Notes under the pieces: model-generated
What the model saw: only the letters and a program-made list of their open reading frames with translations
Database searches by the model: none
What the model was told of the DNA's origin: nothing
Assembly: GCA_964443535.1 (NCBI GenBank)
Contig: CAYUCQ010000003.1
Location: forward strand, 1-49,570
Source of the DNA: Candidatus Woesearchaeota archaeon
GTDB taxonomy: Archaea > Nanobdellota > Nanobdellia > Pacearchaeales > GW2011-AR1
Reading direction: 5' to 3'
Length of the DNA stretch: 49,570 nucleotides
Part shown: piece by piece, positions 2,192 to 37,195 of the stretch
Position numbering within the stretch: position 1 is the first letter of the stretch
Layout: every line of letters starts with the position of its first letter
Position numbers and translations under genes: made by a program

Positions 2192-3013
2192 TTATTTAGG
2201 CGGCTCAAGAGTATCCCAATTTTCTATCCATTCTGAAACAGGAGGGATTTTTGCGTCAATTTTTCTTTTTTCTGTGTAAAGTTTTGCTAGCAGATAGAAA
2301 ATCATGCTAAGACTTTTTGCGCTTTTATTATTGCCTGGCAGGATTTGCGCTGTGCCTCTAATATAATTGTTAGTGTCGCATATTGCCAGAATTGGAATTC
2401 TTATTCTTTTTGCGTCGTTGAAAGCATTTTTATCTATCCATGGGTCGCAGACAAAAACAAGCTTTGTTTCTATGAAATCTGATAGATTAGGATTTGTCAA
2501 AATTCCTGCAGGATATTGCTTTGTGAATATGCGAATGCCTGTGGCTTTTGAGAATAACTCGAGAGCTTTCCAGCCAGCTTCTCTCTTGCAGACTACAATA
2601 ACATCTTCTGGAGCGTATTTTGAAAGAAATTCTGCTGATGCTCTTATCTTTTCATCTAAAAGAGAAGTATTGAAAACAGCTAGTCCATCTGCTCTTCTTT
2701 TGTAAACAAATGGCTTCATGTCAGGAGTTATTGCGCGTGTTCCTAAATGAATTGAAGATTTTAGATAATCTTCAATAGGAATTAAAGTTTCTGCTTTTTC
2801 TTCATCTGCCTCAATCTTTTTCTTTATGTTTATTTCTTTAGTCTCTGGCTCTATAATTGATTTCTCAAATTCTTTTGCCTTTTTCTTGAGAGCAGCTAAT
2901 TTTGATTTCTTGTCTTCATCTACGCTTTCCTCTTTCTTTGCTCTGGCTGGCTTTTTCTCTTCTAGCAACTCGCCTGCTTCTGCGCCTGTTTCTTCCTTTT
3001 TCTTGCGTGGCAT
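2192..3013 (-). CDS. rps2: ribosomal protein uS2 with ~75-aa Lys/Glu-rich N-terminal extension
   Basis: IHLGTR..., LVFVCDPWIDKNAFNDAKRIRIPILAICDTNN. Has the canonical archaeal neighbourhood (eno, rpoK). Confidence 0.9.
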   Translation of the reverse strand: MPRKKKEETGAEAGELLEEKKPARAKKEESVDEDKKSKLAALKKKAKEFEKSIIEPETKEINIKKKIEADEEKAETLIPIEDYLKSSIHLGTRAITPDMKPFVYKRRADGLAVFNTSLLDEKIRASAEFLSKYAPEDVIVVCKREAGWKALELFSKATGIRIFTKQYPAGILTNPNLSDFIETKLVFVCDPWIDKNAFNDAKRIRIPILAICDTNNYIRGTAQILPGNNKSAKSLSMIFYLLAKLYTEKRKIDAKIPPVSEWIENWDTLEPPK

Positions 3014-3072
3014 TTTTTTAGGAGATAGATGAGGTTTTTAAAGCTTGTTAATTCGGAGAATTTAACCCTTGT

Positions 3073-3095
3073 GAAAAATCTCATCGAGATTTTTC
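3073..3095. repeat. perfect 10-bp inverted repeat (GAAAAATCTC-atc-GAGATTTTTC) between divergent promoters
   Basis: Read directly. Lies between TATA-like boxes for rps2 (~3033-3045, minus) and the phosphatase gene (~3141-3152, plus). Confidence 0.6.
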
Positions 3096-3171
3096 CCGGG
3101 TCTCACACCCATATTCCAGTATTATCGTGGGCTTTGTGATCATTTTTAAAGAGCTTTGCCCTTAAATTATC

Positions 3172-3702
3172 ATGAAAGTATACTTTATGAGGCATGGTGA
3201 AAGCAATTATAATATTAAGGGGTTACTTAATAGCGATCCAAAAAAATTAGTTTATCTGACAAAACGCGGAAAAAAACAGGCCGAAGATATTGTTAAACAA
3301 TTAAAAAATGAAGATATAGAAATTATTTTTACATCTGAATTCTTAAGAGCAAAACAAACCGCAAATGTTATCAATAAATCTCTTAATATACCTATAAAAA
3401 TAGATAAGAGGATTAATGAAAGAAAGACTGGATTTGAAGGTAAACTAGAATCTGATTTTCAAAGATTAATTGAAAAAGATAAATTCAACCTGAAGCCAAA
3501 AGGCGGAGAGTCTTTTCAAGAGGAAAAAAATAGGGTTTTTTCTTTCTTAGAATATTTAAAGAAAACTAAATATGAGAATGTTTTAATTATATCGCATGGA
3601 GAACCTATAATGATATGTGCGGGTTATTTTAAAAAATTGAGCAATGAAGAGATATTAAATGTTAAGATTGATAATTGTGAGTTAATCAAATTTGAGATTT
3701 AA
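3172..3702 (+). CDS. histidine phosphatase family protein (phosphoglycerate-mutase-like)
   Basis: N-terminal MRHGES (RHG catalytic motif) and a distal ISHGEP histidine. Sits next to enolase. Confidence 0.75.
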   Translation: MKVYFMRHGESNYNIKGLLNSDPKKLVYLTKRGKKQAEDIVKQLKNEDIEIIFTSEFLRAKQTANVINKSLNIPIKIDKRINERKTGFEGKLESDFQRLIEKDKFNLKPKGGESFQEEKNRVFSFLEYLKKTKYENVLIISHGEPIMICAGYFKKLSNEEILNVKIDNCELIKFEI

Positions 3703-3743: not shown

Positions 3744-4274
3744 ATGAAAGTATACTTTATGAGGCATGGGCAGACTAATTACAATGTGAGGGATTTATGC
3801 AATTACACTCCGACTAAGAAAATCTATCTTACTAAATTAGGAAAAAGCCAGGTTGAAAAAATAGCTGAAAAATTCAAGGATAAAAGATTAGGAGCTATAT
3901 TTGTTTCAGAGCTGTGGAGGACAAGGCAGACTGCTAGCATCATAAATAAATACTGCAATGCTTTGATAAAAGAAGATGCTCGAATAAATGACAGGAAAAC
4001 TGGCTTTGAAGGCATGCCTCATTCTGAATATCTTAAATTAGTTGAAAAAGATAAATTTAATATAAAACCTAAGGGTGGAGAATCTTTTCAAGAGCAAAAA
4101 AATAGGGTTTTTTCTTTCTTGAACGACTTGAAAAAAATAAAGTATAATATTGCTTTAGTCATAACGCATGAAGAGCCCATGAAAATTATTGAAGGCTACT
4201 TTAATGGCTTGAATGATGAGGAAATGTGGGAAATAAAAGTTCCTAATTGCTATTTGATTGAGTTTGAGATTTGA
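3744..4274 (+). CDS. histidine phosphatase family protein, tandem paralogue
   Basis: MKVYFMRHGQT and ITHEEP. I chose the Met at 3744 because 3740-3769 is identical to 3168-3197 of the first copy. The ORF track starts at 3735. Confidence 0.75.
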   Translation: MKVYFMRHGQTNYNVRDLCNYTPTKKIYLTKLGKSQVEKIAEKFKDKRLGAIFVSELWRTRQTASIINKYCNALIKEDARINDRKTGFEGMPHSEYLKLVEKDKFNIKPKGGESFQEQKNRVFSFLNDLKKIKYNIALVITHEEPMKIIEGYFNGLNDEEMWEIKVPNCYLIEFEI

Positions 4275-5383
4275 ATCAATCTATTTAGCTTGACTTGGCG
4301 CCATTTTGTTGCAATTCCGCATTTTATAAAATCTGCGCCAAAACCAACAGCGTAATCTGCCAGTGCGCTGTCAAGAGTTTCTCCAGAGCGATGCGATAAA
4401 ACTGTTTTAATATTGTGCTTCCTGCACATGCTGAATATTTCATTTAATTCTATTAATGAGCCGTTTTGATTTGGCTTTATTATCATTGCATTTATTGATT
4501 TATTTTTAATTGCTATTTTTAATCTTGAAATTTGAGTTGCTGTCAAATCGTCTCCTACAATTAGATGAGCTGCTGATTTTATTATATTTGAGAATCCCTT
4601 GAAATCCTCTTCCTGAAGAGGATCTTCTATATAAAATAAATTATATTTTTTTATCAAAGAATTTGCATAATGAATCTGTGCATTTCTATTGAGGGCTTTA
4701 TTTTTATAATGATAATCTGAATTTTTGTGAAATGTTGAAGCAGCGATATCAAGACCGATTTTTATGCCCTTGAATTTTTTTAGCGTCGATATAATTTCTT
4801 CATTTGAGAGAGAAGTCTGCCATGCGCCCTCGTCGTTTATTGAACTTGATTTTATATTATTTTTTAATTTGCCGTATATTTCCCTCATTAATTTTACATT
4901 TTCTTTTATGTTATTTCTTTGCGGAATGAGCAAAAATTCTTGGAATTCTGGAGAATTTTTATTATGAGAATGCAAGCCTCCGCCAATTGCATTTCCAACT
5001 GGAGTTGGAATTTTTTTTGCTTTGGGATTTATAATCTGCCATAATTCTTTTTTCTGCGAGATTGCAAGCGCTTTTAGAATTGAAGATTCTAATGCAAAAA
5101 GAGAATTTGCGCCAAATTGCCTTGCATTTTTTAACCTGAATTTCTTTATCAGAAAAGATTCTAATTTTTTCAAGTCGTGGAACAAATTTATTTCAAACGG
5201 AATTTTAAGAGAATTTATTTCCTTCACACTAGAGTTCAAATTTTTATTATATGAAGGAGTTTCATATTTTCCTGTTGATTTCCCGCTTGGAGATGAAGCT
5301 TTCTGCCCATTTATTGAAACTTCTATTGTTGGCTTATTGCGGGAATCCTTTATTGCGCGGGCAGAAATATTTTTTATAATCAT
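4250..5383 (-). CDS. eno: enolase (short, 377 aa)
   Basis: SRNKPTIEV, LDIAAS, IEDP, VGDDL, IKPNQNGS and SHRSGET motifs in the canonical order. Confidence 0.85.
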   Translation of the reverse strand: MIIKNISARAIKDSRNKPTIEVSINGQKASSPSGKSTGKYETPSYNKNLNSSVKEINSLKIPFEINLFHDLKKLESFLIKKFRLKNARQFGANSLFALESSILKALAISQKKELWQIINPKAKKIPTPVGNAIGGGLHSHNKNSPEFQEFLLIPQRNNIKENVKLMREIYGKLKNNIKSSSINDEGAWQTSLSNEEIISTLKKFKGIKIGLDIAASTFHKNSDYHYKNKALNRNAQIHYANSLIKKYNLFYIEDPLQEEDFKGFSNIIKSAAHLIVGDDLTATQISRLKIAIKNKSINAMIIKPNQNGSLIELNEIFSMCRKHNIKTVLSHRSGETLDSALADYAVGFGADFIKCGIATKWRQVKLNRLIQISNSIK

Positions 5384-5417
5384 ACTGAATTAAGTTATAA
5401 ATAGTATAAAAGAGTAT

Positions 5418-5792
5418 TTATTTGGCTATAAACTCCCAAAAATTAAGTTTTCCTTTATATGGAATTTCATTAATTCTTTCTGCATTTTCCAGAATAAATC
5501 CGTAATTGCCAAAATCTGCTGATGCTAAGTGTAAATTTTGATCTTTGCTAAAATCTTCCTTGCTTGAATAAAACTTAACTTCTTTTAAAATAGCCTTGCC
5601 AACAATACATCCAATAGGCAATTTATTAAATCCAAATTTTTTCATTGAATCTGCATCATTAGTTTTAGAAGCATGAATTAAAAATTGACCTCTGAATTTT
5701 GTATTCCATTTTCTCAATTCTATCTTTTTTCTGCCAGAAACCACTAATTCAGCAAATGGTTGTTTGAGAGTTAAAGCTTTCATATATTCCAA
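5418..5792 (-). CDS. ASCH (PUA-like) domain protein
   Basis: MKALTLKQPFAELVVSGRKKIELRKWNTKFRGQFLIHAS is the typical ASCH N-terminus. Confidence 0.7.
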   Translation of the reverse strand: MEYMKALTLKQPFAELVVSGRKKIELRKWNTKFRGQFLIHASKTNDADSMKKFGFNKLPIGCIVGKAILKEVKFYSSKEDFSKDQNLHLASADFGNYGFILENAERINEIPYKGKLNFWEFIAK

Positions 5793-5822: not shown

Positions 5823-6206
5823 TTAATGAGCTTCTTCAGAAGGTGCAGGCTCTTCGGCGACTATTTCTTCTTCTTCAACTAGACTGTATTCGTCTGGATT
5901 GGCAACTATTTCCTTTTCAACTTCTTTTGCTTTTTCTATCAATTCCTCGTCTGTAACTGTGTCTTCCTTAAGAGCTGCAAGCTTTTCTTTTCCTTTCTTA
6001 GGAGTTGGGCGGTGTATTGTTATTGGCAAAACGCCTGCTTCTAATTCTAATTCAGCTATTTGCAAGGCGTCGTATTTTATATCTTTTAATTTTTCATCAG
6101 AAATCTTCAAAAGCAGAGGAGCATCCATTGCTATTTGCAGGGCTCTTGCGCCTATAATACGGGCGATTTCGTATTTGGTAAATTTTTCTTTTTCTTGTGA
6201 TTTCAT
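5823..6206 (-). CDS. rpoK: RNA polymerase subunit Rpo6/K with ~60-aa acidic C-terminal tail
   Basis: KYEIARIIGARALQIAMDAP...LQIAELELEAGVLPITIHR core. Sits between the exosome genes and eno/rps2 as in other archaea. Confidence 0.85.
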   Translation of the reverse strand: MKSQEKEKFTKYEIARIIGARALQIAMDAPLLLKISDEKLKDIKYDALQIAELELEAGVLPITIHRPTPKKGKEKLAALKEDTVTDEELIEKAKEVEKEIVANPDEYSLVEEEEIVAEEPAPSEEAH

Positions 6207-6217
6207 AAGAAGATAGC

Positions 6218-7042
6218 TTAAATTAGCTTTTTAAGGTTTTCGTTGAGCTCATCAAACTTCTCAGGCATAATATCCATGATTTTATTTATTTCTTCCTGAG
6301 TAAATGTGTTTTTTCCTGCTTTTTGGCATGAGTTTATCATGTAGTGCTTGTTCCATTTTGATATGCCGAAAGTTATTCTAGAGCTGCATGCCTCTTCTTC
6401 CTCTCTTGATGGATCAATAATTACATTGTCGCCAAGCTTGTAAAAGCTCAATGATAATGGCGCTGTTTCTTTTGAAAGAGGCAAAGGATTCTTTCTGTTT
6501 GAATAATCTATATTTCCGTCTTTGTCTAAGGTAGGCATTTTTGCCATCTTGAGAGCAACAATTGCGGCAATAGTTGCTACGTCTATCAAATTGCCGTCGT
6601 CATTTATAGGATATATATCTACAAAAATATTCCAGACTTTTTCGCCAGGAGTTATTACTAATTTTGTAAAATCTATCATGCCAGATTCTCTTATTGCCCT
6701 GTCAACAAGCCTTCCCAGCTCTATTGCTTCAAAACTTGGAGGGCCTTGCTCAAATCTTGGAGAAGCTAATGGTAGGAATTCTGCAGTGCACATCAAATTT
6801 CCCTTATCAGGAGAATCTGGATATGGCTCTTCTGTTCCTAACTTGACGCCTACAACTATTTCTGTTTTTCCAAGTTTTATGCGAGCGCTTCCTTCTGCCT
6901 TGTTTGACACTTCATGAGAGATTTCTATCTTTCTTGAATCCATTAAACCTCTGCCGTCAAATCTCTTTCCCTGGCTAAGCAGTTTTGCCATGTATTCTTT
7001 AGTGATATTTGAAATTTCCATTTTATTCTCCTTTAATCGCAT
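6218..7042 (-). CDS. rrp42: exosome RNase PH-like subunit Rrp42
   Basis: GKRFDGRGLMDSRKIEI...AEGSARIKLGKTEIVVGVK. Follows rrp41. The Met at 7021 is an alternative start. Confidence 0.85.
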   Translation of the reverse strand: MRLKENKMEISNITKEYMAKLLSQGKRFDGRGLMDSRKIEISHEVSNKAEGSARIKLGKTEIVVGVKLGTEEPYPDSPDKGNLMCTAEFLPLASPRFEQGPPSFEAIELGRLVDRAIRESGMIDFTKLVITPGEKVWNIFVDIYPINDDGNLIDVATIAAIVALKMAKMPTLDKDGNIDYSNRKNPLPLSKETAPLSLSFYKLGDNVIIDPSREEEEACSSRITFGISKWNKHYMINSCQKAGKNTFTQEEINKIMDIMPEKFDELNENLKKLI

Positions 7043-7730
7043 CCTTTAGTGCTTTCTTTTGAACTTCATAGATTTCTTTGCAAGCGTCTGATGCTATCTT
7101 TAATATCTCTTTAACTTGGTCTGGCTGAATTTTTCCATCCATTTGTAAAAGAGAAAAGTCGTCTGTGTTGCCAAGTTTTGCAACTGCAAAGTCTGTTGCG
7201 CCCTCATTTATCTCGAAATCTTCTTCTTCTTTTGTCAAGTCTACAACAAAATCCTTGTCAAGCTTTCCTACTGCAACAGAGCATACTAAATCTTTCATAG
7301 GTATTCCTGCATGAGCTAGAGCCATTGAAGCAGCATTTATTCCTGCTGTTCTTGTTCCTGCATCTGCCTGTAAAATGTAAATCTGCACATCAATTACTGT
7401 ATTTGGAAATTCCTTCAAGTCTATAACTGGCTCTAATGCCCAGCCTGTGACTTTTGAGATTTCCTGAGAGCGTCTTGATGGACCTGGTTTTTTCCTGTCC
7501 TCTACTGAAAAACTAAGAAGATCGTAATTGCATCTTAATACTCCTGAAGAAGGATTTTGCATGTGCTGTGGATGCAATTTTCTCGGACCATAAACTGCAG
7601 CTATAGCAACTGTATTGCCGAATGCAAATAATGCAGAGCCGTCTGCATTAGGAATGACTCCAACTTTTGCAGTCATCTTTCTCAATTCATTGAATTTTCT
7701 TCCGTCTGAACGCTTGAATTCTTTTGTCAT
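7023..7730 (-). CDS. rrp41: exosome RNase PH subunit Rrp41
   Basis: RSDGRKFNELRKMTAKVGVIPNADGSALFAFGNTVAIAAVYGPR...DAGTRTAGINAASMAL. Confidence 0.9.
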   Translation of the reverse strand: MTKEFKRSDGRKFNELRKMTAKVGVIPNADGSALFAFGNTVAIAAVYGPRKLHPQHMQNPSSGVLRCNYDLLSFSVEDRKKPGPSRRSQEISKVTGWALEPVIDLKEFPNTVIDVQIYILQADAGTRTAGINAASMALAHAGIPMKDLVCSVAVGKLDKDFVVDLTKEEEDFEINEGATDFAVAKLGNTDDFSLLQMDGKIQPDQVKEILKIASDACKEIYEVQKKALKDAIKGE

Positions 7731-31805: not shown

Positions 31806-32087
31806 TTAAATCTGCTCTCCTAATTCTTTTAGTATTTCTATTAATTTTGGCACTGAAAAAAACCTTAAATCTAGAGGAAAGAGAACTCCTTGTTCATTAA
31901 CTTGATAATCTCCTATAACCATATATTTTCTTTTAACTATTGTTAAAACATCTCTAGCAAAGAAATGACTATCTTCTCTTTCACCTAAGTATTGCATTTC
32001 TGCATCATTTCCTATACTTCTCATTCTGTAGGTTTCTCCTTGGATTAATTTTGGCCTTCTCTCCATTATTTCTATTCCTTCTGTCAT
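31806..32087 (-). CDS. hypothetical 93-aa protein embedded between rpl2 and rps19
   Basis: ORF track. Its ATG shares one base with the rpl2 TAA (TAATG), and its stop lies 1 nt before the rps19 ATG. No recognisable motif. Confidence 0.6.
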   Translation of the reverse strand: MTEGIEIMERRPKLIQGETYRMRSIGNDAEMQYLGEREDSHFFARDVLTIVKRKYMVIGDYQVNEQGVLFPLDLRFFSVPKLIEILKELGEQI

Positions 32088-32783: not shown

Positions 32784-33026
32784 TTATATCATTCCCAGCT
32801 TAGTTGCAACATCAATTGCAGGATTTTTTTTATTTAATTTGACGTAAGCATATTTCTTGTTTCCCATTATGTGCGTCCTGACTTTTTCCACTTTAACAGA
32901 GAATAGCTTTTCAGTCTCTTGTTTTATATCTTCCTTTCTAAACTTTCTTTCTGTTTCAAATATCAAAGTATTGTCTATCTCTATCATCTTTACTGCTTTT
33001 TCTGATGTTATTGGCTTGAGTATCAT
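32784..33026 (-). CDS. rpl23: ribosomal protein uL23
   Basis: ILKPITSEKAVKMIEIDNTLIFETERKFRKEDIKQETEKLFSVKVEKV. Confidence 0.9.
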   Translation of the reverse strand: MILKPITSEKAVKMIEIDNTLIFETERKFRKEDIKQETEKLFSVKVEKVRTHIMGNKKYAYVKLNKKNPAIDVATKLGMI

Positions 33027-33643
33027 TTTGCTAAATATGCTGGAACTTTAAATTGTGAATATTCTGGGAATAATGGCTTTCCATGAACGAGGCGAGAAAA
33101 ACATTCTGCAGTTAATTTGCAATCTTCCAAAGCATTGTGTTTTTTTCTATTATCTTTCATGCCGCAGAACTCCAATATATTTGACAATCCCATATCGCTG
33201 TGGTCATCTTTTATAAGGAATTTTCCATGAATTTCTTTATATTTTTCTTGTGCATATGTATGCAAGTCAAAAGATCTATGATGAAATGGAATTTTGCCTA
33301 ATCCATATTTACCTGCTTTTATATTAATTATTCCTAAATCAAATGCTGGATTTTGACAGATGCAATTTTTTATTGCCTTTAAATTTTTAACATAATTAAA
33401 GAAATTTTGAATTAATTTCTTTTGTGATTGCTTTCTTTTATCACGGAAATCTTCGTCTTTTAATCCTGTAATCTCGTATACTGTATGTTTATCGCCAGGA
33501 ATATTAACAATCTGGTCTTCATTATCTATTCTTGCTTCTTCTAAGAAAGTATTTTGAGGATTCTCAAATTCTAAAGCTCCTATTTGCCAAATTCCTGATT
33601 TATAAAAATCTGTTCCCCTTGTTTCAATGTCTAAAACTATCAT
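33023..33643 (-). CDS. DEDDh-type 3'-5' exonuclease (DnaQ/RNase T-like) embedded between rpl4 and rpl23
   Basis: ExoI VLDIETRG, ExoII NPAFDLGII, ExoIII KHNALEDCKLTAECFSRL (H-x4-D). ATGA-type 4-nt overlaps at both ends. Confidence 0.75.
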   Translation of the reverse strand: MIVLDIETRGTDFYKSGIWQIGALEFENPQNTFLEEARIDNEDQIVNIPGDKHTVYEITGLKDEDFRDKRKQSQKKLIQNFFNYVKNLKAIKNCICQNPAFDLGIINIKAGKYGLGKIPFHHRSFDLHTYAQEKYKEIHGKFLIKDDHSDMGLSNILEFCGMKDNRKKHNALEDCKLTAECFSRLVHGKPLFPEYSQFKVPAYLAK

Positions 33644-34413
33644 TTCAATTCTCCCAATGCTTTTTGAGTGTAAACTGCTAATCTGCCAAGAGGATATAAA
33701 TCTTTTATGTTCAGTTCGTTTGTTTTTCTGACATCAATTCCCTTGACTTTCATATTTTCGTCTTTTGCTATGACAAGCAAAAGACCTGCGTTTGACTTGT
33801 ATTTCCTGCCTCTTGATTTCCCTTTTCCTGCTCTTACTGATTTATTCTTCAATAACAATTCAAAATTTTCCTTGAAAATTAATTTTATTGCATTGAAAAA
33901 ATCTTTTGTTTTTATCTTGTCTAATTTTGATTCCAAGATTACTGGAAGTTTTACATGCAGCTTGTTCAAAGTTGAATATCTTTTTATTATTGAAGATTCG
34001 TGGGCAGTAGATGCCAATGCAGAATGCATTGCCATGAGCATTTCTTTCTTATTGATTTTCTTTATCTGGCTGTTTAGTTTTGGCGGATGAGCTCTTCTTC
34101 CTCCTCTTACGCTTGCAACTTCAGCTCCGACCCAGAAGAACTGCGTTCCCCTGCGCCACATTGTTTTTCTTGGAATTCTTGATATTCCTTTTCCATAATG
34201 CCCTTTCCAGTCATGTCTTTTGTGGGAAATTTTTCCTGAAGCAGCATGCCTTTTTCCAGCTTCTTTGTATGGAGCATATGGATGAATGCTGTTCAGTCTT
34301 TCTGCTTCATAATATTTCTGAACAATATCTTCTCTAATATTTGAATTAAATATTTCTGGAATTTCTATTTCTCCTGCTTCTTCTCCCTTGATATTGTATA
34401 ATTTTGCTTTCAT
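33640..34413 (-). CDS. rpl4: ribosomal protein uL4
   Basis: PYKEAGKRHAASGKISHKRHDWKGHYGKGISRIPR...VRGGRRAHPPK. Confidence 0.9.
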   Translation of the reverse strand: MKAKLYNIKGEEAGEIEIPEIFNSNIREDIVQKYYEAERLNSIHPYAPYKEAGKRHAASGKISHKRHDWKGHYGKGISRIPRKTMWRRGTQFFWVGAEVASVRGGRRAHPPKLNSQIKKINKKEMLMAMHSALASTAHESSIIKRYSTLNKLHVKLPVILESKLDKIKTKDFFNAIKLIFKENFELLLKNKSVRAGKGKSRGRKYKSNAGLLLVIAKDENMKVKGIDVRKTNELNIKDLYPLGRLAVYTQKALGELK

Positions 34414-35551: not shown

Positions 35552-36157
35552 ATGGAAAAAGAAATTAAGATAACTAAAAAGCAATTAATGAAAATTGCAG
35601 ATTATAAATCAAAGCCTCTTCCGAAGTATAGCTCGTCTATAATAAATTTGTTAAATAGATGGGCTAAAGGAACAGCGTCAAAAGTTGTTGGGCAAATGTC
35701 TGATTTAATACAAGAATGCCCCTATAAAGATTATGAAAAGTGGAGAGAATGGTATCTTAAAAAATACCCTAATTCTTTGGATAATGCTATAAAATTGATT
35801 ATGTCTAAACTAAAAGAAGTCGCTAAGACATTTGAAAATATTGATGAAAACATAGTTAGAACTTGGGTAGAGGATTTAGTAATTGATAAGAGTTTTTGGG
35901 GTTTGAAGATACAAGAGGCGATTATAGCAAGATTAAAAGAGATAACTAATAAAAAATGTAGATTGGCTACGAAAGAGGAAGAGAATAAAGGCATTGATGG
36001 TTTTATTGAAGATTTACCAATTCAAATAAAACCCTCTTCTTATAAAATTGCTTCAAATGTAAAAACTGAGAAACTTAGAGCCAAAACCGTTTATTATGAA
36101 AAGGATGAAAACGGAGATTATATCATAAATTTAAACGAAATCTCAAATTTGTTTTAA
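35552..36157 (+). CDS. putative type II restriction endonuclease
   Basis: 201-aa ORF convergent with the methyltransferase and overlapping it by 15 nt. GIDGFIEDLPIQIKP fits a D...(E/Q)xK nuclease core. The family is not identified with certainty. Confidence 0.5.
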   Translation: MEKEIKITKKQLMKIADYKSKPLPKYSSSIINLLNRWAKGTASKVVGQMSDLIQECPYKDYEKWREWYLKKYPNSLDNAIKLIMSKLKEVAKTFENIDENIVRTWVEDLVIDKSFWGLKIQEAIIARLKEITNKKCRLATKEEENKGIDGFIEDLPIQIKPSSYKIASNVKTEKLRAKTVYYEKDENGDYIINLNEISNLF

Positions 36158-37195
36158 TAAGCTATAATCTATTTCAAATAGATTTTCTTCTATTTGCTTT
36201 ATTTCTTTTAATTCGGGTATTGATATTTTTATTTCTTGTAAAGTAACAACTGGAAAACTATAATTTTTATTTAGATATTTATGTTCCCCTTTTAATTCTG
36301 CTCTTTCCTTCATAAATTCGCTATGTCTTTTTAATCTATCTTTGATACGCTCATTTGCTATCTCTTTAAAATTTTTTATTCTTACTTCTATAATCTCTTT
36401 AAAATTGGCATCTATTTCGTAGCCGATGCTATTTCTTCCAGAAGCAATAGCTCCCAGTATTGTTGTTCCTGTTCCTAGAAATGGGTCTAAAATAGTATCG
36501 TCTTGTACAGAAAACATATTCACCAGCCTATAAGCTAATTCTATAGGATACGCTGCGCTTCTTTCCCTGATCTTAGTGTAGTTTAATTTCTGAAAGACTC
36601 CATTAATGTCTTTCCATTTATCAGAAAACCAGATGTTTCTTTCTTCCCAAAAGAAAGCACTTCTCTGCCTATTTAATTTTTCTTCAGGTTTATTAAATTC
36701 TCTTTTATCTCCTTTTCTTAAAATTAAAATATGCTCATGTTCTAAAGTTACATAGGCTCCAACAGGCAACATACCAGAACCCATAAACTTATCTGGTTTG
36801 TTAGTTTCTTTTATCCAAAGAATATGGGGCAACGCATGAAAGCCAAGACTTAAACAATAGTTTAATATTCTTGCATGATTAGTATAAATTCTAAATTTTC
36901 CATTTAAACTTCTTGTAGCATCGCCAATATTTATACAAGCAATGCCTCCAACTTTTAAAACTCTATAAACCTCTTTCCAAACTTTGTCCATCTCTTTATG
37001 CATTAGTTCAAAAGCTTTTTCTCCATTAAACTCCTTTAGCGCATGATTTATATCTAAGTTCTGTAAAGAAAACATTTCATCCCACATTTCAATCATGGGA
37101 TAAGGTGGAGAAGTGATCATTAAATTTACACTTTCAGCTTTAATCTCTTTCATCTCTCTTGCATCACTATAAAATATTTTATGTTCTGTTTTCAT
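36143..37195 (-). CDS. DNA methyltransferase, beta-class (likely N4-cytosine)
   Basis: Motif IV ITSPPYP lies near the N-terminus and motif I DPFLGTGTT near the C-terminus. The order IV...I indicates the beta class. SPPY is typical of m4C enzymes. Confidence 0.8.
   Translation of the reverse strand: MKTEHKIFYSDAREMKEIKAESVNLMITSPPYPMIEMWDEMFSLQNLDINHALKEFNGEKAFELMHKEMDKVWKEVYRVLKVGGIACINIGDATRSLNGKFRIYTNHARILNYCLSLGFHALPHILWIKETNKPDKFMGSGMLPVGAYVTLEHEHILILRKGDKREFNKPEEKLNRQRSAFFWEERNIWFSDKWKDINGVFQKLNYTKIRERSAAYPIELAYRLVNMFSVQDDTILDPFLGTGTTILGAIASGRNSIGYEIDANFKEIIEVRIKNFKEIANERIKDRLKRHSEFMKERAELKGEHKYLNKNYSFPVVTLQEIKISIPELKEIKQIEENLFEIDYSLLKQI

Follow-up and report, generated by a model that had tools for sequence, protein, structure and literature searches.

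Why should the L3-L4-L23-L2 gene block, which serves as a near-invariant marker for phylogeny and binning, carry the gene for a nuclease in its interior? The question is raised by a stretch of 49,570 nucleotides (contig CAYUCQ010000003.1, hereafter the window) from the 0.6-Mb metagenome-assembled genome, 85% complete, of a Pacearchaeota-like DPANN archaeon, in which a gene for a DEDDh (DnaQ/RNase T superfamily) 3'-5' exonuclease lies between rpl4 and rpl23. Full-text searches of the literature found no description of the gene or of this arrangement, which we denote L4-EXO-L23. The comparisons presented below indicate that the position is most likely a permissive, highly expressed landing site and not the mark of a ribosome-specific job, and that the exonuclease is an accessory gene of Pacearchaeota-like DPANN archaea. 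To the reading as a whole, that of an optional exonuclease expressed from the operon in which it has landed and used in the clean-up of DNA 3' ends, we would give an even chance of being correct.

An intact exonuclease gene embedded in the L3 operon

The gene is an open reading frame (ORF) of 206 amino acids (aa) with an ATG start at 33023-33643, as the original prediction stated and the list of ORFs bears out; coordinates are positions in the whole window, and the genes of this region lie on the minus strand. It is present in the short form, without the insert of 12 aa that precedes the catalytic histidine in the long form. The upstream neighbour is rpl4 (uL4; 33640-34413; Pfam Ribosomal_L4, E = 1.5e-22) and the downstream neighbour is rpl23 (uL23; 32784-33026; Pfam Ribosomal_L23, E = 2.4e-12), beyond which lie the L3 gene (34410-35363) and the L2 gene (32087-32782), both recognised by Pfam. 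At each join the reading frames overlap by 4 nt in the form ATGA: the TGA stop of rpl4 overlaps the ATG of the exonuclease gene at 33640-33643, and the stop of the latter overlaps the start of rpl23 at 33023-33026. TCAT is read on the plus strand at both ends, which confirms the overlaps that had been claimed. There is no intergenic space and no promoter belonging to the gene itself is visible. These overlaps are the ordinary style of the operon and nothing peculiar to the exonuclease gene, because L3/L4, S3/L29 and S17/L14 overlap by 4 nt too. Co-transcription with coupled translation, which had also been proposed, is the natural reading of so tight an embedding, given that among the 46 distinct genomes that have the order L4-EXO-L23 a -4 overlap is found at the L4/exonuclease boundary in 29 and at the exonuclease/L23 boundary in 35. 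The enzyme would be made from the L3-operon transcript, with ribosomes that finish L4 restarting on the exonuclease and then on L23 at the overlapping ATGA codons.

The ORF matches Pfam PF00929 (RNase_T) over the entire profile (1-164 of 164; E = 3e-12; 47.8 bits against a cut-off of 24), and the ExoI (DIET), ExoII (AFD) and ExoIII (H-x4-D) motifs that had been reported for it are intact. In an alignment of 96 homologues, D5 and E7 of the ExoI motif D5-I6-E7 (D5-I-E7-T; 33623-33631) occur in 94, the other two being N-terminally truncated. The catalytic aspartate of ExoII, D102 in the sequence NPAFD (33338-33340), is invariant (96 of 96). In the ExoIII motif, H169-N-A-L-E-D174 (33122-33139), the histidine is likewise found in all 96 and D174 in 94, with glycine replacing it solely in two distant paralogues. 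The catalytic histidine stands five residues ahead of the last aspartate, as the DEDDh class requires. An AlphaFold2 model (predicted local distance difference test score, pLDDT, 93.6; predicted template modelling score, pTM, 0.89) predicts an RNase H-like alpha/beta fold of the DEDDh kind, and a Foldseek search with this model returned 177 matches in the PDB at E <= 0.001, the top-ranked among the matches listed being DEDDh enzymes. By these indications the product is an active-looking, catalytically intact, stand-alone DEDDh 3'-to-5' enzyme. A candidate PCNA-binding motif, Q-K-K-L-I-Q-N-F-F, was dropped, as it is out of register and lies within a core helix.

This is the sole PF00929 gene in the genome. 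A word-based search delimits a family of 698 proteins, and a full profile search of 1.84 billion representatives yields 221 clusters at E <= 1e-30; nearly all members are stand-alone proteins of about 200 aa, and the homologues are labelled Nanoarchaeota, Pacearchaeota or Woesearchaeota. The NCBIfam models for epsilon, PolC and RNase T match the exonuclease below threshold only. It appears to be a generic member of the DEDDh superfamily and the orthologue of no characterised enzyme. A division into two clean paralogue lineages, an operon type and a Gins type, was abandoned, the gene tree being too poorly resolved and the operon housing long and short forms alike. Some representatives, P0122 (399 aa) and P0130 (386 aa), have about double the usual length and contain two or three matched stretches, perhaps through fusion or tandem duplication of the exonuclease.

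Optional distribution, selection and loss

A homologue is present in 20 of 61 relatives. When these are combined with a scan of GTDB species genomes, 97 copies are found, of which 54 are in the order L4-EXO-L23 (30 of the long form and 24 of the short) and 43 lie elsewhere. The original prediction had called for a search for the same insertion in related genomes; the search recovers it in the 46 genomes referred to above, and the DEDD residues are intact, contrary to the refuting outcome that the prediction had named. The gene is not present throughout the lineage at the L4/L23 seam, as a canonical member of the operon would be. In relatives that lack the exonuclease, as in most genomes that have a copy elsewhere, L4 and L23 are mostly separated by no more than about 35 bp, and an intact L4/L23 junction without the exonuclease is found in nearly all of the 30 checked relatives that lack an operon copy. 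A species tree built from L3, L4, L23 and L2 groups the window with three other operon carriers (support 97-99), while the gene is missing from sister lineages within the same genus, and at least 12 changes of the "in operon" state are needed on the well-supported branches of this tree.

One congener, G004, retains a relic between L4 and L23 (locus L103, 1334-1500; the same as L019). It consists of 52 codons, in frame, in which the first 14 residues are joined to the last approximately 35, so that ExoII and the histidine are lost and both ATGA overlaps are kept. This is direct evidence of loss by deletion, and a sign that the enzyme can probably be dispensed with even where the coupled reading frame lives on. 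Where the gene is present, the ratio of nonsynonymous (dN) to synonymous (dS) divergence is 0.05-0.27 (11 pairs). This range, and the recurrence of L4-EXO-L23 in 46 genomes, argue that the exonuclease is a selected, working gene and not junk. It would seem to be kept by purifying selection in its carriers, and to have been repeatedly lost or moved to other seams.

Seams of the ribosomal operon accept unrelated genes

We take the L4/L23 position to be a permissive landing site because unrelated orphan genes fill many ribosomal-operon seams in these genomes. Counting inserts of at least 200 bp, in about 103 distinct genomes (the seam loci of relatives are L021-L161), we find that the L3/L4 seam is occupied in 27 genomes, the L23/L2 seam in 36 and the L2/S19 seam in 10. 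Apart from the exonuclease, the inserts are orphans that form blastp clusters of one to four. With iterated hidden Markov models (HMMs), some of the orphans can be united into two small families of very high divergence, which are spread over three or four different seams; a very divergent family of 21 members is found at four. A single relative may carry several: orphan inserts are found at 2854-3225, 4835-5152, 5854-6189 and 7237-7593 of locus L049, and in genome G003 five of the seams from L3 to S3 hold an insert. Two close genomes, G001 and G002, differ in which orphan occupies which seam. In G001 (locus L030) a 101-aa ORF (3274-3579) and a 501-aa ORF (4205-5710) flank the exonuclease with 4-nt overlaps, the longer of the two bearing a lipoprotein-like signal (…LGSGCS), and G002 has neither. 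The seams of housekeeping operons would on this account be places where accessory genes land and come to be expressed in tiny genomes.

The window itself contains a second passenger, a 93-aa orphan ORF between rpl2 and rps19 (31806-32087, minus strand) with a G+C content at third codon positions (GC3) of 0.181. It has no match in Pfam, NCBIfam, PADLOC or PHROG, and a search of 5.8 billion proteins returned only the orphan itself. Iterated HMM searches tie it to six ORFs in relatives, at the L2/S19, L23/L2 and L22/S3 seams, and this small, very divergent family shares the start K-L-x-x-G-x-x-Y and the end I-L-x-E-L-G-E-Q-I. Its AlphaFold2 model is poor (pLDDT 59.9) and predicts a beta-rich protein with a C-terminal helix.

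Other features of these operon regions were recorded in passing. In locus L158 (genome G081), at 10-2641, the gene order is L3-L23-L2-L4-S19, with rpl4 now at the L2/S19 seam, and the sister loci L157 and L159 have the usual order. A 195-aa ORF at the L23/L2 seam of L004 / L033 (genome G009) has an H-D…D pattern like that of HD-domain phosphohydrolases, recognised by eye only. The window also contains an MjaI-type restriction endonuclease gene (Pfam RE_MjaI, 3e-54) convergent with that of an N6/N4 DNA methylase (35552-37195; GC3 of the methylase 0.222), the pair being placed between PCNA and the start of the L3 operon.

Probable exchange between lineages, and other locations

Between G001 and G002 the ribosomal proteins L3, L4, L23, L2 and S19 show dN of 0.03-0.06 and dS of 0.30-0.59; the exonucleases at the same site show dN of 0.24 and dS of 0.94, and one of them, not the other, has a 12-residue insert ahead of the catalytic histidine. 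Over all operon pairs the relation between exonuclease identity and ribosomal-protein identity is loose (Spearman rho = 0.56). The GC3 of the window exonuclease, 0.198, falls in the bottom 3% of the values for 406 long ORFs (mean 0.287, standard deviation 0.044). The divergent alleles, the loose correlation and the low GC3 together suggest allele replacement, although they do not prove it, and the exonuclease has probably been exchanged between lineages. Hallmarks of mobile elements were looked for around the gene, and no flanking repeats, junction duplication, integrase or transposase were found; the repeats that do occur there are short AT-rich chance matches, and the two junctions share only 6 nt (AAATGA). 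A viral origin was rejected, since relatives on viral contigs are only 24-29% identical.

Outside the L4/L23 seam the exonuclease is found in varied company. In 19 of the listed genome loci and in one metagenome contig Gins51 follows it directly. At about five loci it is placed between S27e and aIF2alpha, with a RecJ/GAN-like DHH gene upstream of it. A 66%-identical homologue lies between aIF2alpha and Nop10, and the gene also occurs between L32e and L19e and, at seven loci, between a helix-turn-helix gene and a NifS-like gene. One locus, L065 (1-186 and 4001-4606), has two divergent exonucleases within a single ribosomal operon, a long form at the L4/L23 seam and a short form at the S17/L14 seam, both of which terminate in a AAAATGAA junction. 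A distant paralogue was also seen near genes that resemble L31e and Cbf5, the names being read from the sequences without a family search.

A 50%-identical exonuclease occurs in a genome labelled Patescibacteria (locus L076, contig JAKLDG010000001.1, 25-8035). This locus bears a bacterial-type 23S rRNA (2548 bits) and a 5S rRNA, and the 5S gene is followed in turn by the genes for LigD 3'-phosphoesterase, the exonuclease and uracil-DNA glycosylase, then by two ORFs without family matches, and then by Fpg. The copy looks like the result of a transfer between DPANN archaea and bacteria of the candidate phyla radiation (CPR).

Substrate and rival explanations

What, then, would an optional exonuclease do for its host? 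We lean towards the processing of DNA 3' ends over RNA because of the profile affinities of the protein, its neighbours and its optional distribution, which fits a repair enzyme better than a core step of rRNA maturation. The best profile matches are the DnaQ domain 8h18 from S. thermophilus (2e-15) and the PolC exonuclease 2p1j (4e-15), followed by Cas2-DEDDh and Cap18; RNase T (7e-8), epsilon (4e-6) and Orn (about 1e-3) rank lower. The PHROG family "DNA polymerase exonuclease subunit" matches at 3e-22 and a PADLOC model of a Cas-associated DEDDh protein at 5e-18. As for neighbours, the gene adjoins Gins51 and is found near the RecJ/GAN-like gene, and the bacterial copy is beside those for LigD 3'-phosphoesterase and uracil-DNA glycosylase. 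The enzyme might remove nucleotides singly from free single-stranded 3' ends by two-metal catalysis and, with the same low certainty, its main use might be the clean-up of DNA 3' ends in repair or replication; by analogy with RNase T, which acts on both, it may act on RNA too.

Several observations weigh against this reading, or against parts of it. Sequence and fold do not decide between DNA and RNA as the substrate. In the Foldseek ranking RNase T is first (template modelling score, TM, 0.65-0.67), nearly tied with a DnaQ domain, Cap18 and epsilon (TM 0.62-0.67), and PF16473, the Rv2179c-like 3'-5' exoribonuclease family, is matched marginally (28.4 bits against a cut-off of 27) on residues that PF00929 matches far more strongly. 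The Exo I-III-like motifs of PolB are recognisable and intact, and the genome also has PolD (DP2), so there is no proofreading gap to fill, and a role as a replacement for missing proofreading is ruled out. A phyletic correlation with the TIGR00375-like neighbour, a family that we take to be that of endonuclease Q, was sought and rejected, there being none (13 of 15 against 33 of 46). Seams related to translation make up about half of the distinct contexts, and in the Patescibacteria-labelled locus the gene is about 580 bp downstream of 23S-5S with only the LigD 3'-phosphoesterase gene in between; together these could reflect a real link to ribosome biogenesis. With respect to exchange, the lower dS of the ribosomal protein genes could be due to codon constraint, and an approximately unbiased (AU) test did not reject a single clade for the operon copies of the genus (p = 0.07). 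Independent insertion of the window copy is a separate proposal, and it is left unsupported by the same AU test (p = 0.07) and by the species tree, which sets the window among operon carriers.

The original prediction had suggested that the enzyme compensates for lost processing enzymes. The exosome subunits Rrp41/Rrp42 are encoded in 59 of the 61 relatives, among carriers and non-carriers of the exonuclease alike, and in the window by two adjacent RNase PH-domain genes (Rrp41/Rrp42; 6533-7688, minus strand), which rules out compensation for exosome loss. With the exosome, PolB and PolD all in place, there is no obvious deficiency for the exonuclease to make good, and this part of the prediction falls away.

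A lineage-specific nuclease of ribosome biogenesis or RNA 3'-trimming, synthesised along with the ribosomal proteins and acting in the manner of RNase T on 23S, 5S or tRNA 3' extensions, would account for the copies at five translation seams (L4/L23, S17/L14, L32e/L19e, S27e/aIF2alpha and aIF2alpha/Nop10) and for the bacterial copy some 580 bp past the 23S-5S rRNA genes, as well as for the distant paralogue near the L31e-like and Cbf5-like genes, and would agree with the full-length RNase T matches at the head of the Foldseek ranking and with a PF16473 score just over its cut-off; we know of no enzymes that finish the 3' ends of archaeal rRNA. We nevertheless consider this explanation, serious rival though it is, unlikely. 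One would not expect a core maturation step to be dispensed with, and some two thirds of the relatives have clean junctions without the gene, which in a congener has decayed. These facts, and the location of the gene elsewhere in about 45% of its carriers, also weaken the dedicated ribosome or rRNA role originally put forward. Exosome genes are nearly universal among the relatives, the closest sequence profiles are those of domains that act on DNA, 19 loci are beside Gins51 and one is among DNA-repair genes. Finally, the same seams hold unrelated orphans, a lipoprotein-like gene and remnants of toxin-antitoxin (TA) systems and of diversity-generating retroelements (DGRs), and since they are so full of unrelated genes, position is weak evidence of function.

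Two further explanations have less in their favour. One is recycling of oligonucleotides in the manner of Orn, by which short DNA or RNA would be degraded to mononucleotides in archaea that, as DPANN, probably depend on salvage, with expression tied to growth through the ribosomal operon. The protein is a stand-alone DEDDh enzyme of about 200 aa without extra domains, it is the only PF00929 protein of its genome, its profile match to Orn structures (1e-3) is weak but real, and DHH-family nucleases are present, redundancy with which would agree with an optional distribution. Similarity to Orn is, however, the weakest among the DEDDh groups compared, no nucleotide-salvage genes are found among the neighbours examined, and nothing tested speaks directly for such a role, which strikes us as decidedly improbable. 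The other is a selfish or conflict-related cassette tolerated in the operon, either a mobile gene of no benefit or a nuclease of defence or counter-defence. In keeping with it are the scattered occurrence of the gene, its movement from seam to seam, its atypically low GC3, the divergence of its alleles in close genomes and the existence of a copy in another domain of life, and so are the best PADLOC match, to a CRISPR-associated DEDDh protein, the presence of Cap18 of the cyclic-oligonucleotide-based antiphage signalling system (CBASS) among the closest structures, and the restriction-modification, TA and DGR remnants in the operon region of the same genome. It is opposed by invariant catalytic residues under purifying selection (dN/dS 0.05-0.27), by the lack of flanking repeats, integrase and transposase at junctions that share only AAATGA, by the lack of close relatives on viral contigs (24-29% identity) and by the lack of a defence partner adjoining the gene in the contexts examined, and we think it very improbable. 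Of the "selfish insertion" offered by the original prediction, the notion of an accessory passenger in an insertion-prone operon survives, while dN/dS of 0.05-0.27 speaks against the rest.

Implications

The enzyme is of an ordinary protein kind, and the interest of the case lies in its location. The block L3-L4-L23-L2, for all its use as a marker, is not rigid in one large group of DPANN archaea. Guessing function from a neighbourhood of ribosomal genes ("guilt by association") can mislead, because the same gene turns up at five or more seams, next to genes of replication and, in one bacterium, in the midst of repair genes. The habit of inserting at seams could reveal how minimal genomes gain and express genes that lack promoters of their own. 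If the exonuclease were to trim the 3' ends of rRNA, an open question of archaeal ribosome maturation would be addressed, although the optional distribution argues against this.

These considerations can be extended into a broader proposal, which we offer tentatively and regard as somewhat doubtful. The exonuclease may be one cargo of a wider gene exchange in ultra-small archaea, for which the seams of conserved operons (ribosomal, aIF2alpha-Nop10 and Gins) would be the main hot spots of accessory genes. Cassettes would be swapped from lineage to lineage by recombination in the conserved flanking genes, would be fixed only if stop/start coupling were preserved, and would reach co-occurring CPR bacteria; the exonuclease would be the commonest "public good" cassette, widely shared and no resident gene.

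Comparison with known enzymes and systems

RNase T is a gammaproteobacterial enzyme that trims the 3' ends of RNA and DNA and belongs to the core of tRNA and rRNA maturation; it acts as a homodimer, in which basic nucleic-acid-binding patches work across subunits. Like the exonuclease, RNase T of E. coli and P. aeruginosa (Rnt; PDB 3ngy, 2f96) is a stand-alone DEDDh protein of about 200 aa with the D-E-D-H-D set, and it heads the Foldseek ranking with an alignment from end to end (TM 0.65-0.67, E about 3e-9). The identity is only 20-24%, however, and the score of 21.2 bits against TIGR01298 falls far below the equivalog cut-off of 246.2. RNase T is also bacterial and core, whereas the window exonuclease is archaeal and optional.

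The DnaQ-type domains, namely 8h18 (the DnaQ domain from S. thermophilus DGCC 7710), T. maritima PolC (2p1j), Cas2-DEDDh (8fyc) and E. coli epsilon (1j53), are the best profile matches (2e-15 to 4e-6), and the proofreading domains of this type have in common with the exonuclease the ExoIII form H-x-A-L-x-D-A. Unlike these proteins it has no fused polymerase, Cas2 or other domain. It lacks the C-terminal extension by which epsilon binds polymerase alpha, the match covering 4-173 of the 234 positions of the profile, and it ends about 20 residues past ExoIII. Against the DnaQ equivalogs NF004316/TIGR01406 it scores 35.3 bits where 196 are required and 31.6 where 222.7 are required. No gene for a Pol III partner is found among the local neighbours of the window exonuclease. 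It is not fused to cas1 or cas2, and no cas-like neighbour is seen in the contexts examined, which were inspected without a whole-genome search for cas genes. Of the DEDDh groups under comparison, Orn matches least well (Orn structures, E = 1.6e-3 to 7e-3), and no Orn model is among the NCBIfam hits.

With regard to location, the seams resemble horizontal-transfer hot spots and the "morons" of phages, in which varying accessory genes likewise lie between conserved, co-directional core genes. They differ in that the host is the most conserved operon known, the joins are stop/start overlaps and no mobility machinery is visible.

A closer parallel exists within the archaea. The gene for RecJ/GAN is encoded with ribosomal protein genes (Makarova et al. 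2012, PMC3307487), and an archaeal supercluster has been described that unites PCNA-PriS-Gins with L44e-S27e-aIF2alpha-Nop10 (Berthon et al. 2008, PMC2643942). The exonuclease differs from GAN/RecJ in its fold, which is DEDDh and not DHH, and in the association seen in the window, which is unstable and confined to a DPANN subgroup, whereas that of GAN/RecJ is ancient and near-universal in archaea. In relatives, the exonuclease lies inside or beside the same supercluster and near the RecJ/GAN gene, and GAN/RecJ(Cdc45), encoded with S15 and S3Ae, provides the precedent of a replication nuclease inside a translation cluster (PMC3307487, PMC2643942).

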